Assembly (NCBI RefSeq): GCF_003334355.1 | Contig: NZ_QOWP01000036.1 | Reading direction: 5' to 3' (one strand) | From: Escherichia coli | Lineage (GTDB): Bacteria; Pseudomonadota; Gammaproteobacteria; Enterobacterales; Enterobacteriaceae | DNA length: 33,910 bases | Shown: positions 24,677 to 33,833 of the stretch, piece after piece | Position numbering within the stretch: position 1 is the first letter of the stretch | Layout of the letters: every line of letters begins with the position of its first letter | Notes under the pieces: model-generated | Seen by the model: the letters and a program-made list of their open reading frames with translations, nothing else | What the model was told of the DNA's origin: nothing | Databases searched by the model: none | Program-made: the position numbers and the translations under genes

Positions 24677-25096
24677 TTATCTCTCAAGTTCGTTCAGTGC
24701 ATTTTTGACACGCTCTCTTAAACCGGCTTTCTCGTCGCTTTCTTCCACAGTATTTTCTTCGTCTTCAGAAGAAGAGGGGGCATTCTCAACCGCGACGCCT
24801 GGGTCATCTTCCTCCTCGACGGATTCGACGACGGGGAGTGGCTGTTTTTTGAAGAAATAGTGTTGTGTTGATTGTTTAAAAGCGGGCGTTTCAGCCTCTA
24901 CAGTGACTTCGGCTTTTACTATCCAAAGCACCCATAGCTGCCTGGCATACCCACCAACCAGCACCATTCCTGCAAACCACAGGCAAATCAGTAATAAACA
25001 AATTACATATATTATGGTGCTGTGTTTTTGTCGGGAGAAGATACCAGGGTGACCTGTTTCTTTCTGCTCACGCGCGGCGATATAGAATTCAAACAT
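24677..25096 (-). CDS. gspB: GspB (type II secretion accessory inner-membrane protein)
   Basis: 139 aa ORF MFEFYIAAREQKETGHPGIF... with one predicted TM helix and an acidic Glu/Asp-rich C-terminal half, immediately downstream of gspA. Confidence 0.85.
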   Translation of the reverse strand: MFEFYIAAREQKETGHPGIFSRQKHSTIIYVICLLLICLWFAGMVLVGGYARQLWVLWIVKAEVTVEAETPAFKQSTQHYFFKKQPLPVVESVEEEDDPGVAVENAPSSSEDEENTVEESDEKAGLRERVKNALNELER

Positions 25097-25097
25097 G

Positions 25098-26567
25098 TCA
25101 TTTCCCCTTCACTGTTGTTTCCGGGGAAATATTTGCTTCATCCCGATATAAGTAGGCACTCTCCCCTGCCACCTGCCAGAGATGTACTAACGTTGAAAAG
25201 CCAACAACACCGTCAGTTTTCAAGTGGTGGCTTTTTTGAAATTGCTTTATTTTTTCTACCAACAAGGGACGCCACTCCGCCGAAGGTTCTGTCGAAATAT
25301 GCAATGCGCGGTTTAACATCGTTTCCAGCCAGAGAATCTCTTCCTCGCTGCTATCACGCGTAATGGTACTCTCCCCTTCCGGCGACATTTTCCACAACAG
25401 AAGATAATCACCCGTCCATACCGACTCAAACCATTTATGTGTCAGCGTCCACGTTTGCTGACCTACGAGGACATCAACGCTAGCCTCACCGACGCGAACG
25501 ACCACAACAGGCAATTTTTTGTCCCCGACTTTAAGCGATGCGATCCAGGGCAAATTCTGATCTACCAATGTTTGTAAAGAAGCATTCCCACTTTTACATG
25601 CCAGCCCCGCTCTTACTGCCTGATCGCACCAGGCCGAATCAGCTGGGACCTCGTACCCCCATACGCCGTATAACACGCTTAGCGCCTCACTATCGCGCAT
25701 CACCACATGAGCAATATCCTTAGTCATATCTTGTTTAACTACTGGCGTTACGGGTATCAGCCACGCAGGAACGGGTAACGTAGCTGTAAAAGAGGACAGC
25801 AGTAGCCAACCACAGGTAAGAGCGATAATGGTTCCACTCATCACCACGGCAAGCTGCATTTTCCGGGGGCGGTTATCACCCAATATGCGGTAAATCATTC
25901 GCCATTGTTTTGCTGTGAAAACGCTGGTCTGCTCGGCTTGCTGTAATAAGCGAATTGTTTCGCCGGCAAGCCCCATCTTTCTGCGATCGCCCCGACATAA
26001 TAAAGCTATCCGTTTCAGAACTCTGGCGGTTAAAAGGAGATCGGGTTGGTCAATATTCTGACCTTCAAGGATGCTTGCCTTAAGTTCGTGCTCCGTCAGA
26101 CGTCCTATCGAGACAAGTTCAATGCCCTGTTTTTTAAAATCACGTTCGACTTTTCGATCGGGTCTGCCGATCAGCAAAAATTGACCGTCAGGAATAAGAG
26201 ATATTGCGCGTTGGAGATCATCAAGTATGCGGCGGTGATTCAGGTGAGCATTTTCAATAATAATAAGAGGGCAGCGACTATCAGTTCGATGAAGCGCATG
26301 CAGTAATTGCCCCGCCATCTCATCTCGCGTCCAGGCGCTGTCACGGCAGCCCTGTTCAGCCGCGTTATCGTCGGTAACGATCCATGCGGCCTTACCTTGC
26401 CAGGAAACAACGAGGCTTAAAGTAATCACACGGCGATGTTTATCTTTTTGCAGTTGCTGCGCCAGCCAGGTTTTTCCACTTCCAGCCTCACCCAACAAAT
26501 AGCATAGACGCCAGGTTTGACGTTTCTCACACAACCAGGAAAGAATAACTTCTCTTCTCGTAGACAT
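25098..26567 (-). CDS. gspA: GspA (ExeA-like AAA+ ATPase with C-terminal peptidoglycan-binding domain)
   Basis: 489 aa ORF with Walker A GEAGSGKT near the N-terminus and a TM segment mid-protein; matches remembered GspA. Confidence 0.9.
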   Translation of the reverse strand: MSTRREVILSWLCEKRQTWRLCYLLGEAGSGKTWLAQQLQKDKHRRVITLSLVVSWQGKAAWIVTDDNAAEQGCRDSAWTRDEMAGQLLHALHRTDSRCPLIIIENAHLNHRRILDDLQRAISLIPDGQFLLIGRPDRKVERDFKKQGIELVSIGRLTEHELKASILEGQNIDQPDLLLTARVLKRIALLCRGDRRKMGLAGETIRLLQQAEQTSVFTAKQWRMIYRILGDNRPRKMQLAVVMSGTIIALTCGWLLLSSFTATLPVPAWLIPVTPVVKQDMTKDIAHVVMRDSEALSVLYGVWGYEVPADSAWCDQAVRAGLACKSGNASLQTLVDQNLPWIASLKVGDKKLPVVVVRVGEASVDVLVGQQTWTLTHKWFESVWTGDYLLLWKMSPEGESTITRDSSEEEILWLETMLNRALHISTEPSAEWRPLLVEKIKQFQKSHHLKTDGVVGFSTLVHLWQVAGESAYLYRDEANISPETTVKGK

Positions 26568-26746
26568 AGAACTTCCTGTTTTAATTATTGATTATCCTTA
26601 ATCATAAAAATAATGTATGTATTTATTAATTAAATACATATTACTAATATAAATAAATTTTGCTTGATTCATGCAAGCGGCATTAATACTATTTATACTA
26701 ACGTCAATATACAACCCACCCAATCTATTTTATTAGAACATACATC
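26568..26746. promoter_or_regulatory. AT-rich divergent gspAB / gspC-O control region (reported H-NS-silenced in K-12)
   Basis: 179 bp, strongly AT-rich, between divergent gspA (ATG at 26567) and gspC (GTG at 26747). Contains a 9 bp inverted repeat ATGTATTTA-TTAAT-TAAATACAT at 26616..26638. Confidence 0.6.
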
Positions 26747-27562
26747 GTGCCCACACTACGTTTCCCCTTCCATCTGGCGAATCATAATAAAGATGCTGCC
26801 ATCAATATATTGATTATATTTATAAGCATAGGGTCGATTATTTTTAATGTGAATTATTTCCATACAACTATAGTTAAAAATGGACAGATCATTAATCAAC
26901 CAACAAACGCATTTCAGTCTGATTTCAGCCTTGCCGCTTTATGGCGTAACGAAAATCATGCTGGGGTAAAAGATGCAAATCCCGTGGCAGTTAATCAGGA
27001 AACACCTAAGCTCTCTATAGCGCTTAATGGCATTGTACTCACATCGAATGATGAGACTTCTTTTGTCTTAATTAATGAGGGGAGCGAACAAAAGCGATAC
27101 TCCCTCAACGAAGCCCTTGAGTCAGCGCCGGGAACGTTTATTAGAAAAATAAATAAAACCAGCGTTGTGTTTGAAACTCACGGGCATTACGAAAAAGTAA
27201 CTCTCCATCCAGGGCTACCTGACATCATCAAGCAGCCTGATTCAGAAAGTCAAAATGTACTCGCTGATTATATTATCGCCACGCCTATACGTGATGGAGA
27301 ACAGATATACGGGCTTCGATTGAACCCTCGTAAGGGCCTCAATGCATTTACCACCAGCTTGCTACAACCAGGGGATATCGCCCTCAGGATCAATAATCTT
27401 TCGCTGACCCACCCTGATGAGGTTTCACAGGCATTAAGTTTACTGCTAACTCAACAAAGTGCTCAGTTTACAATTCGTCGCAACGGCGTACCCCGCTTGA
27501 TAAATGTTTCCGTCGGGGAACTTACAGGAATGAATGGACTGCGTCATGAAAGGACTCAATAA
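26747..27562 (+). CDS. gspC: Type II secretion system protein C
   Basis: 271 aa ORF from a GTG start ([32 protein letters not shown]...), with an N-terminal TM helix; first gene of the gsp operon. Confidence 0.88.
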
Positions 27563-32191: not shown

Positions 32192-32629
32192 ATGCGCGCA
32201 ACGGATAAGCAACGCGGTTTTACATTACTGGAAATTATGGTGGTGATCGTCATTATCGGCGTACTTGCCAGCCTGGTGGTTCCTAACCTAATGGGCAATA
32301 AAGAAAAGGCGGATAAGCAAAAAGCCGTCAGCGATATTGTGGCGCTGGAAAACGCCCTTGATATGTACAAACTCGACAATCATCACTATCCAACCACAAA
32401 TCAGGGGCTTGAATCCTTAGTAGAAGCGCCGACACTGCCACCGCTGGCCGCAAACTATAACAAGGAAGGTTATATCAAGCGTCTGCCTGCCGATCCCTGG
32501 GGCAATGATTATGTCCTCGTTAATCCTGGTGAACATGGTGCATACGATCTGCTTTCAGCAGGGCCCGATGGTGAAATGGGAACCGAGGACGACATCACCA
32601 ACTGGGGTTTGAGCAAGAAGAAAAAGTAA
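32192..32629 (+). CDS. gspG: Type II secretion major pseudopilin GspG
   Basis: 145 aa ORF with the prepilin leader and cleavage motif [12 protein letters not shown]. Confidence 0.96.
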   Translation: MRATDKQRGFTLLEIMVVIVIIGVLASLVVPNLMGNKEKADKQKAVSDIVALENALDMYKLDNHHYPTTNQGLESLVEAPTLPPLAANYNKEGYIKRLPADPWGNDYVLVNPGEHGAYDLLSAGPDGEMGTEDDITNWGLSKKKK

Positions 32630-32636
32630 GTCAGCG

Positions 32637-33146
32637 ATGAATCAGCAACGCGGGTTTACCCTGCTGGAGATGATGCTGGTGCTGGCGCTGGTCGCTATCA
32701 CGGCAAGCGTGGTGCTCTTCACATATGGCCGGGAGGATGTCGCCAACACTCGTGCGCGCGAAACAGCGGCGCGGTTTACCGCTGCACTTGAATTAGCCAT
32801 CGACCGCGCCACGCTCAGTGGTCAGCCTGTCGGTATCCATTTCTCTGATTCAGCATGGCGCATTATGGTACCGGGCAAAACACCATCAGCCTGGCGCTGG
32901 GTTCCATTACAAGAAGATGCCGCAGACGAGAGCCAAAATGACTGGGATGAAGAACTCTCAATTCATCTTCAGCCATTTAAACCTGATGACAGCAACCAGC
33001 CACAGGTTGTGATTCTGGCCGACGGACAAATCACGCCCTTCTCTTTGTTGATGGCTAACGCCGGGACCGGTGAGCCGCTCCTGACGTTAGTCTGTTCAGG
33101 CTCATGGCCCCTGGATCAAACGCTCGCCAGAGATACCCGCCCATGA
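32637..33146 (+). CDS. gspH: Type II secretion minor pseudopilin GspH
   Basis: 169 aa ORF with prepilin motif [15 protein letters not shown]. Confidence 0.93.
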
Positions 33147-33520
33147 ACAAACAATCAGGGATGACACTGCTTGAAGTCTTACTGGCGATGAGTATTTTCA
33201 CCGCTGTTGCTCTGACTTTAATGAGCAGTATGCAAGGGCAACGAAATGCCATCGAGCGAATGCGTAACGAGACGCTGGCATTGTGGATAGCGGATAACCA
33301 GCTTCAGTCACAAGATTCATTCGGCGAGGAAAACACGTCCAGTTCTGGCAAAGAGTTAATAAATGGCGAAGAGTGGAACTGGCGCAGCGATATCCACTCA
33401 AGCAAAGACGGCACGCTTCTGGAACGCACCATAACGGTGACATTACCCAGCGGTCAGACAACCTCGCTTACGCGTTATCAAAGCATCGATAATAAATCCG
33501 GGCAGGCACAAGATGATTAA
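33143..33520 (+). CDS. gspI: Type II secretion minor pseudopilin GspI
   Basis: ORF 33104..33520 trimmed to the ATG at 33143 ([19 protein letters not shown]...), giving 125 aa; ATGA overlap with the gspH stop. Confidence 0.92.
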
Positions 33521-33833
33521 TCGCCAGCAGGGTTTCACATTGCTGGAGGTCATGGCGGCGCTGGCGATTTTCTCAATGCTTAGCGTGCTGGCGTTTATGA
33601 TTTTTTCGCAAGCTTCCGAGTTGCATCAACGCTCACAGAAAGAAATCCAGCAGTTCAATCAGCTACAGCGCACCATCACCATTCTTGATAACGATCTCCT
33701 GCAACTGGTCGCCCGGAGGAATCGGAGTACGGACAAAATCATGGTGTTGGGTGAAGAAGCTATTTTTACCACGCAAAGTCGCGATCCGCTGGCTCCTCTC
33801 AGTGAAGCACAAACCTTACTCACTGTTCACTGG
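33513..33833 (+). pseudogene. gspJ: gspJ (minor pseudopilin) 5' fragment, truncated at codon 107 by an IS insertion
   Basis: Prepilin motif QQGFTLLEVMAALAIF. The reading frame ends at a TGA (33834..33836) that coincides with the first bases of an IS-like terminal repeat. Intact GspJ is 195 aa as I remember it. Confidence 0.6.

Follow-up and report, generated by a model that had tools for sequence, protein, structure and literature searches.

A type II secretion locus with an IS1203-cut gspJ in a polymorphic segment between the S10 promoter and tufA of Escherichia coli

The DNA described here, referred to below as the window, is a stretch of 33,910 nucleotides from Escherichia coli (contig NZ_QOWP01000036.1 of assembly GCF_003334355.1). 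Positions 24677–33833 of the window are the 5′ two-thirds of the K-12-type T2SS-α locus, a type II secretion system (T2SS) gene cluster (gsp) that lies next to the S10 ribosomal-protein operon, and the gspJ gene of this copy is cut by the insertion sequence (IS) IS1203/IS629. We are confident of the overall explanation, namely that this is the known T2SS-α locus, interrupted in gspJ and situated in a slot that is not a classical island but exists as two old haplotypes. The slot is bounded by the S10 promoter on one side and the tufA terminator on the other, and is polymorphic both within E. coli and across the order Enterobacterales. The locus, its position, its silencing by H-NS and its patchy distribution in E. 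coli have all been published previously, and the finding is otherwise an ordinary one: a cryptic K-12 system has been re-identified, with the dimorphism of the segment, followed across genera, as a modest by-product.

The gsp locus and the interruption of gspJ

The window had previously been read from its letters alone, and the identification of a type II secretion cluster made in that sequence-only reading is supported both by family models and by 100% identity to annotated genomes. The mechanically called open reading frames (ORFs) coincide with the RefSeq annotation of a 100%-identical genome, and the components were named using NCBIfam equivalog models with their cut-offs and, for GspA, Pfam domains (Table 1). 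Equivalogs scored above cut-off for GspB, GspC, GspD, GspE, GspF, GspG, GspH and GspI. When the T2SS parts were examined with family models, the secretin GspD, the ATPase GspE, GspF and GspC, and the accessory proteins GspA and GspB were all found, and the full pseudopilin set G–K was not: GspG, GspH and GspI are intact, GspJ is cut short and gspK lies past the IS, outside the window. The genes gspL, gspM and gspO are likewise downstream of the IS, and are present in the intact alleles of other genomes; gspK–O, bfr, bfd and chiA thus all fall outside the window. The gene set is that of the T2SS family, and this copy of it is defective. The K-12 T2SS-α is the same locus, with 100% identity up to 33833 and an equal gene order, gene lengths, 179-bp intergenic region and SlyA site; the window's copy differs from it in that gspJ is cut by IS1203/IS629 after codon 107. 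Gene sizes had been described as those of K-12 with the exception of gspJ, and they do equal the RefSeq annotation, gspJ having 107 codons rather than 195.

Identity to E. coli gspJ (588 bp and 195 aa when intact) ends at 33834, from where the sequence, TGAACCGCCCCGGGTTTCCTGGAGAG..., matches with 100% identity the terminus of annotated IS1203/IS629 copies from many genomes. The terminal 77–79 nt are 100% identical to annotated IS1203 copies and carry the terminal inverted repeat TGAACCGCCCCGGG...; the end at 33833 that had been given to the locus is exactly the last base of gspJ before the IS. The first three bases of the element, TGA (33834–33836), supply the gspJ stop after codon 107 of 195, and the transposase is antisense to gspJ, as judged from the orientation of an annotated copy. 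The remaining GspJ fragment matches positions 1–70 of the 192-position profile only, with a score of 52.7 bits that is below the cut-off of 64.85. The anomalous length of gspJ, left without an explanation in the sequence-only reading, is therefore real and caused by IS1203/IS629. Only one end of the element is in the window; copies sharing this same 77-nt end contain orfA and orfB with a programmed frameshift.

The short gspJ could be thought an artefact, either through an error in sequencing or through assembly of a chimeric contig end in which gspJ is fused to an unrelated read from an IS, since the junction is only 77 nt from the end of the contig and is found in 0 of 5426 complete E. coli genomes. 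This is very improbable. The exact 107-aa product, which needs the TGA derived from the IS, is found in 108 blocks of independent public assemblies (European Nucleotide Archive metagenomes and Logan assemblies of the Sequence Read Archive), and one metagenome contig with the same junction continues through a complete 1.3-kb IS, with orfA and orfB antisense, and ends at the other IS terminus. A contig break at an IS end is, in addition, the normal behaviour of an assembler at a true junction. An assembly artefact was rejected on the basis of the independent assemblies and the IS-spanning contig, which establish that the insertion is real; it marks a lineage that has been sampled repeatedly. The contig ends in the IS, short-read assemblies breaking at repeats, and the 33.9-kb window looks like one complete short-read contig with a repeat at either end, the leader of a 16S rRNA gene at its start and the IS1203 copy at its finish.

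GspJ is part of the pseudopilus tip. Insertion of IS1203/IS629 would shorten this tip pseudopilin to 107 of its 195 residues and, as the element lies inside the gspC–O operon, is expected to be polar on gspK-L-M-O; for both reasons the secretion system is most likely dead in this strain. A strain that is probably without a working system adds to a pattern of independent decay. Other E. coli strains have been found with an IS3-family element in gspL, with a gspH–gspM deletion that fuses into gspO, with an IS21-family element and ars genes in place of most of gspA and, in strain HUM3355, with an insertion of ~0.8 kb that was taken as IS1 from its size alone. Such independent inactivations, gspJ::IS1203 included, fit a system that is dispensable and normally silent.

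The rpsJ–tufA segment in E. coli and in other genera

The distribution of the locus was determined across the 5426 complete E. coli genomes, using as query the 18.4-kb rpsJ-to-tufA segment of an intact genome. A long form, with the order rpsJ-gsp-bfr-bfd-chiA-tufA, is present over at least 80% of the query length in 3062 genomes; in all, ~58% of complete genomes belong to the long form. The locus is hence accessory, as its earlier description as an acquired island implied. Long-form segments fall into two subtypes that are ~2.6% apart, one with ~99.6–100% and the other with ~97.4% identity to the query. A further ~2230 genomes match only 13–14% of the long query and contain a 3.27-kb form made up of rpsJ, a prepilin peptidase gene, bfr, bfd and tufA. 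When this short form was used as the query it was found complete in 2252 genomes (~41%), with ~3% internal diversity between subtypes, whilst the best match in the 3156 other genomes was at 60–80% identity and, among the matches listed, consisted of the bfr-bfd part only, at ~78%. Presence of the cluster is thus variable (3062 versus 2252 genomes), and where it is missing the whole segment takes the form of a diverged allele: the two states seen in E. coli are whole-segment alleles, not presence versus an empty site.

The boundaries of the two haplotypes are sharp. On the left, the long form agrees with the short at 99.95% of positions between rplW and the −10 hexamer of the S10 promoter, where identity stops at ~24623; on the right, agreement resumes at the tufA terminator hairpin, with 99.7% identity beyond it. 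Between these flanks the bfr-bfd DNA is 77–78% identical; the bfr coding sequences are 80% identical, with 58% identity at third positions, and the Bfr proteins 88%. With bfr-bfd diverged by ~22% between near-identical flanks, at least one haplotype must, to judge from these alignments, have come into E. coli from a lineage about as distant as another genus, by crossovers in the ultra-conserved flanks. Neither a tRNA, an integrase nor flanking repeats were found between rpsJ and tufA, as assessed using the annotation and searches for tRNAs and repeats. The only repeats found in the segment are three to four diverged tandem repeats of ~300–320 bp inside chiA (24848–25960 of the long-form locus), which are presumed to be repeated N-terminal chitin-binding domains.

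The lone peptidase of the short form is a 155-aa protein, encoded at 2191–2658 of the short-form locus, that is 41% identical to the C-terminal domain of GspO and is without the N-terminal A24_N domain. It is annotated as intact and retains the PD and GYGD motifs, which presumably carry the catalytic aspartates. As its homologues form a clade across the core Enterobacteriaceae, it may be no relic but a working peptidase, with type IV pilins as one conceivable substrate. The short-form bfr is 85–86% identical to that of Citrobacter versus 80% to that of the long form.

Replacement-type variable regions are known from enteric bacteria, in the form of the O-antigen rfb locus between galF and gnd and the mutS–rpoS region. 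Like the segment studied here, these have diverged alternative gene sets, no mobility genes and breakpoints in conserved flanks; unlike them, this segment is flanked by the S10 operon promoter and the tufA terminator, and only two haplotypes of it were seen in E. coli. The dimorphism of the segment illustrates how ultra-conserved genes can act as recombination arms when large gene sets are swapped. In a genome-wide association study of mastitis, bfr and bfd are listed as accessory, at strain frequencies equal to those of gsp and chiA (PMC11390585). This would be explained, without true presence or absence, if pan-genome clustering had separated the two versions at their 77–80% DNA identity.

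The slot was followed into other genera with a Bfr-anchored scan of one genome per species, which yielded 80 Enterobacterales loci that were classified by tblastn. This set is without Salmonella and the sister species of Escherichia, and includes one locus labelled Escherichia sp. ESNIH1 that has a short-type bfr; an exact look-up of the S10 protein returned E. coli-level variants only (97–100% identity). For Salmonella LT2 we assume the order rpsJ-hopD-bfr-bfd-tufA, hopD being a peptidase gene, which is the short form. Synteny of the type tufA-bfd-bfr-X-rpsJ is general among the 80 loci, with three states of X. Nothing is found at X in Xenorhabdus, Photorhabdus, Proteus, Providencia, Serratia and Erwinia. 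A lone prepilin peptidase gene occupies it in Kluyvera, many Citrobacter and Enterobacter, Silvania, Pluralibacter, Raoultella, Kosakonia, Buttiauxella, Hafnia, Rouxiella and others. The full gspC–O is present in Yokenella, three Chimaeribacter (Yersiniaceae), two Enterobacter, Citrobacter braakii, a Citrobacter amalonaticus strain, two Trabulsiella and the metagenome-assembled genome UBA5654, and in some of these loci a GH18 chitinase gene lies between bfd and tufA. Where the context is complete, in Citrobacter and Yokenella, it reads rpsJ-gspB-gspA<>gspC..O-bfr-bfd-(GH18)-tufA, as in E. coli, and gspB-gspA abut the S10 promoter. The other T2SS-bearing genera probably share this gspB-gspA arrangement, given contigs of ~38–44 kb versus ~26 kb for the short forms. 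Since the same architecture is present at the same site in Citrobacter and Yokenella, the placement of gsp here is, on the evidence of synteny, ancient and not specific to E. coli.

Divergence between the T2SS-bearing lineages is deep and star-like, with GspE 63–70% and GspA/GspB 27–30% identical; for Citrobacter and Yokenella the GspE figure is 65–68%. The only lineages that pair are E. coli with UBA5654 (GspD 84%), Yokenella with Trabulsiella, and the two Enterobacter. In a neighbour-joining tree of the peptidases, the lone peptidases of core Enterobacteriaceae, the E. coli short form included, make up one clade; the full-length GspO proteins of T2SS loci are in another, where the long-form GspO groups with UBA5654. 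In the three Chimaeribacter loci, Bfr is 92–93% identical to the K-12 type, versus 82–87% for other Yersiniaceae, which points to bfr moving along with the T2SS cassette.

Composition and origin of the segment

The sequence-only reading had regarded the AT-richness of the control region and of the 5′ end of gspC as a sign of foreign origin. The AT-richness itself is there: an AT trough of ~400 bp, comprising the intergenic region 26568–26746 (GC 0.229) and the first 200 nt of gspC (GC 0.36), has the lowest GC content in the 33.9 kb, with a 200-nt minimum of 0.24 that is ~6 standard deviations below the window mean (0.497, standard deviation 0.042). The foreign origin read into it did not survive the GC and codon-usage check, in which only these ~400 bp deviate and the bulk of the locus appears native. 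The gsp part has a GC content of 0.493 and the remainder of the window 0.499. Per-gene GC at third codon positions is 0.38–0.58 for gsp, the value for gspC being 0.38, versus 0.42–0.55 for non-ribosomal housekeeping genes. The codon adaptation index, calculated against the ribosomal-protein genes of the window, is 0.27–0.45 for gsp genes, 0.30–0.53 for housekeeping genes and 0.59–0.82 for ribosomal-protein genes and rpoA, and the rare-codon use of the gsp genes overlaps that of weakly expressed native genes. An equivalent trough is found in Citrobacter (0.33 and 0.35) and Yokenella (0.29 and 0.375), although the GspA and GspC proteins that flank it there are only ~30% identical to those of E. 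coli; AT-richness is therefore best regarded as a conserved and functional property of the control region, rather than as a fading donor signature.

These results bear on how the locus came to its site. The sequence-only reading envisaged a discrete horizontal island inserted at rpsJ in an otherwise constant site, with the AT-richness as a donor leftover, and absence of the locus from ~41% of E. coli genomes, the very AT-rich control region and gspC 5′ end, and H-NS silencing of the promoter region, as for many foreign genes, would all be in keeping with it. It is nonetheless improbable, as there is no tRNA, integrase or flanking direct repeat, bulk GC and codon usage are native-like, the trough is conserved in Citrobacter and Yokenella clusters of only ~30% GspA/GspC identity, other genera have the same architecture at the same site, and genomes without the cluster carry a 22%-diverged allele that includes bfr-bfd and the S10 promoter spacer in place of an empty site. 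Of the proposal of an old, horizontally acquired island, the accessory status (presence in 3062 of 5426 genomes) and the import of at least one form stand; the mechanism of insertion and the argument from composition fall, the absence of tRNA, integrase and repeats, the native-like composition and the diverged alternative allele all being against them. A classical integrative island was rejected for the lack of tRNA, integrase and flanking repeats and for a composition that deviates over ~400 bp only. The model of the literature, in which the E. coli ancestor had gsp and the short form is the product of a simple gspO–rpsJ deletion and loss of chiA within the species, is more improbable again. 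A prepilin peptidase gene does remain beside bfr in the short form, and genuine partial deletions and IS insertions do occur in long-form strains, but the remaining peptidase is 41% identical to GspO, is without its N-terminal domain and clusters with the lone peptidases of other genera. Nor can a deletion create a bfr-bfd that is ~22% different and an S10 spacer that is different between flanks of >99.7% identity. Simple deletion within the species was rejected on the divergence of bfr-bfd and the 41%-identical peptidase, and the published statement of a deletion is to be corrected: what strains ‘lacking’ gsp have is the entire segment between the operons in another allele, diverged by 22%. 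The data are compatible with an ancient deletion in an ancestor of Enterobacteriaceae, after which the short form was inherited vertically, and this is part of the explanation that we favour.

That explanation is of two old and deeply diverged versions of the slot in E. coli, which would have arisen through replacement by homologous recombination in the ultra-conserved flanks; across Enterobacterales, the slot would hold bfr-bfd alone, bfr-bfd with a lone prepilin peptidase, or bfr-bfd with a full T2SS, with or without a chitinase. As to which version came from outside, we lean slightly towards the long, T2SS-bearing haplotype as the imported one, because the bfr and peptidase genes of the short form behave like vertically inherited Enterobacteriaceae genes and because the Gsp proteins of the long form differ too much from their counterparts in sister genera. 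The reverse, with the long haplotype vertical in Escherichia and the short one imported from a Citrobacter- or Salmonella-like relative via the conserved flanks, is a serious alternative that we hold to be rather unlikely. It gains from the presence of the long form in diverse backgrounds, one of them an O2:K1:H7 avian pathogenic E. coli strain, from a divergence of ~2.6% that is typical of deep E. coli splits, and from the short-form bfr being nearest to that of Citrobacter (86%), a possible pointer to the donor. However, 86% is what vertical descent between sister genera would lead one to expect, and not recent import; the short form is equally diverse internally (~3%), the phylogeny of its peptidase roughly follows the family, and the long-form Gsp proteins, at only 65–70% identity to their counterparts at this site in sister genera, are too divergent for vertically inherited Enterobacteriaceae orthologues.

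Several points count against the explanation that we favour. Function and silencing of the locus would rest on the K-12 literature. The direction of import was judged, with the slight lean given above, from comparisons without Salmonella, Escherichia albertii, Escherichia fergusonii and cryptic-clade Escherichia. For neither haplotype did a close donor turn up, UBA5654 being the nearest match (GspD 84%, bfr DNA 82%), and the ~3% internal diversity of each shows that the two have long been present in E. coli. A silenced cluster that can be dispensed with may evolve fast, and the Gsp proteins could then look more deeply diverged than they are, although this would not apply to the synonymous divergence of bfr. 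Finally, the far junction of the IS in gspJ lies outside the window, and a simple insertion and an IS-mediated deletion or rearrangement fit equally well. More tentatively, with somewhat less than an even chance, the site may be a family-wide cassette slot in which diverged alleles are exchanged between genera via the ribosomal and EF-Tu flanks, the two haplotypes of E. coli being a long-lived polymorphism; if so, the differing spacers of the S10 promoter could subtly affect the expression of ribosomal proteins.

Control region, S10 promoter junction and the rest of the window

In K-12, gspC–O has been described as a cryptic unit, repressed by H-NS, that helps to export the chitinase ChiA, and SlyA has been shown to bind the 179-bp gspA–gspC intergenic fragment in an electrophoretic mobility shift assay (PMC5797941). 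Repression of K-12 gsp by H-NS is stated in two reports (PMC5797941; PMC11390585), and secretion of ChiA is known for K-12 hns mutants. The original work on gspAB, gspC–O and ChiA secretion in K-12 is that of Francetic and Pugsley 1996 and Francetic et al. 2000, at least as summarized in PMC5797941 and PMC3032704. The system has been named T2SS-α, is chitinase-secreting and has a Klebsiella-type secretin, GspA and GspB being scaffolding proteins that bring secretins of this type through the peptidoglycan (PMC3707838; PMC10329019). The 14-gene cluster between rpsJ and bfr has been reported from K-12, B and Crooks, and to be absent from all B1 strains examined (PMC3032704).

By analogy with this published work, the locus would consist of two divergent operons, gspAB and gspC–O, around the AT-rich 179-bp control region, with both promoters silenced by H-NS and SlyA able to counteract the silencing. 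The machine, when de-repressed, would secrete ChiA, which is encoded just past bfr-bfd, and would be made up of the GspD secretin, the GspE ATPase, a platform of GspC, GspF, GspL and GspM, a GspG–K pseudopilus and the prepilin peptidase GspO, with GspAB helping the secretin through the peptidoglycan. The published SlyA site, TTATATTAGTAA, occurs once in the window, at 26641–26652 (−), 79 bp from the start of gspA. The H-NS high-affinity motif, which we take to be TCGATAAATT, had 36 matches with up to two mismatches in the whole window versus 33.9 expected, and its matches in the control region are due to AT-richness alone.

The same set of components, with the same class of secretin and a GspA that has AAA and peptidoglycan-binding domains, is found in the Pul (Klebsiella), Exe (Aeromonas) and Out (Dickeya) systems; unlike in these, gspAB are here adjacent and divergent to gspC–O, and the system is silenced under laboratory conditions and has, according to the literature, ChiA as its only known substrate. 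The second T2SS of the species, T2SS-β (yghJ/sslE-pppA-yghG-gspC–M, at pheV), lies outside the window and is also variably present (PMC3707838). In contrast to the locus studied here, T2SS-β has a Vibrio-type secretin, a pilotin (GspS/YghG) and a tRNA-linked hypervariable site, and secretes LT and SslE.

Placement of gspB-gspA immediately beside the S10 promoter had been proposed from the sequence and was confirmed. As read on the minus strand, this promoter has a −35 hexamer TTGCGT at 24644–24639 and a −10 hexamer TATAAT at 24622–24617, and the stop codon of gspB (24679–24677) is 33 nt upstream of the −35. In an alignment of nine species, a −35 of TTGC.T and a −10 of GTATAAT are kept in 9/9 and the adjoining GCGCGGGC in most; most of the discriminator is conserved, and all DNA upstream of the S10 −35 is lineage-specific. 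The long and short E. coli haplotypes (24623–24646 of the window compared with 1990–2015 of the short-form locus) share both hexamers, whilst the 16-nt spacer and the upstream DNA are entirely different. The gspAB genes are co-directional with the S10 operon, and no terminator-like site is predicted in 24645–24679 (−), so that transcripts of gspAB, if any, would run on into the S10 promoter. The gspB-like stop of Citrobacter is only ~13 nt from the S10 −35. A consensus promoter and terminator scan of 24300–27000 gave counts at chance level and failed to pick up the S10 promoter, and its output was set aside.

Table 1. Features of the window in and beside the gsp locus.
Feature	Position	Strand	Basis
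rpsJ (S10), first gene of the S10 operon and fixed left neighbour of the locus	24128..24439	−	ORF and annotation of identical genome
S10 leader and promoter	24440..24646	−	sequence; alignment of long and short haplotypes
gspB, 139 aa, accessory protein acting with GspA	24677..25096	−	NF007250 equivalog, 288.7 bits (cut-off 180); RefSeq
gspA, 489 aa, AAA-type with peptidoglycan-binding domain	25098..26567	−	Pfam AAA_22, GspA_C39-like, PG_binding_1; RefSeq
divergent gspA<>gspC control region, 179 bp, GC 0.229	26568..26746	.	composition; published SlyA site inside
gspC, 271 aa, GTG start, AT-rich 5′ end	26747..27562	+	TIGR01713, 293.6 bits
gspD, 650 aa, outer-membrane secretin (Klebsiella-type GspD-α)	27546..29498	+	TIGR02517, 648.5 bits (cut-off 351); class from PMC10329019
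gspE, 493 aa, secretion ATPase	29508..30989	+	TIGR02533, 656.8 bits (cut-off 630)
gspF, 398 aa, inner-membrane platform protein	30986..32182	+	TIGR02120, 548.7 bits
gspG, 145 aa, major pseudopilin	32192..32629	+	TIGR01710, 184.3 bits
gspH, 169 aa, minor pseudopilin	32637..33146	+	TIGR01708, 169.6 bits
gspI, 125 aa, minor pseudopilin	33143..33520	+	TIGR01707, 132.8 bits
gspJ′, first 107 of 195 codons	33513..33833	+	translation; partial GspJ profile match
end of IS3-family IS1203/IS629, terminal 77 nt, TGAACCGCCCCGGG...	33834..33910	−	100% match to annotated IS1203 copies

The start of the window (1–120) reads as the leader directly 5′ of a 16S rRNA gene, and is followed by aroE..def-fmt-rsmB-trkA-mscL and then, on the minus strand, by the alpha, spc and S10 ribosomal-protein operons. 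Many complete E. coli genomes, K-12 derivatives included, match bases 1–24000 at 100% identity, and the same holds for 24000–33834. Several K-12-derived and other genomes have an extra IS3/IS1203 copy of ~1.26–1.31 kb, which the window is without, inside the region that matches 1–24000. At Rfam gathering thresholds, no family was matched over the S10 leader, and the sole family found in the whole window is Alpha_RBS, the alpha-operon ribosome binding site, at 13608–13719 (−) with 102.7 bits.

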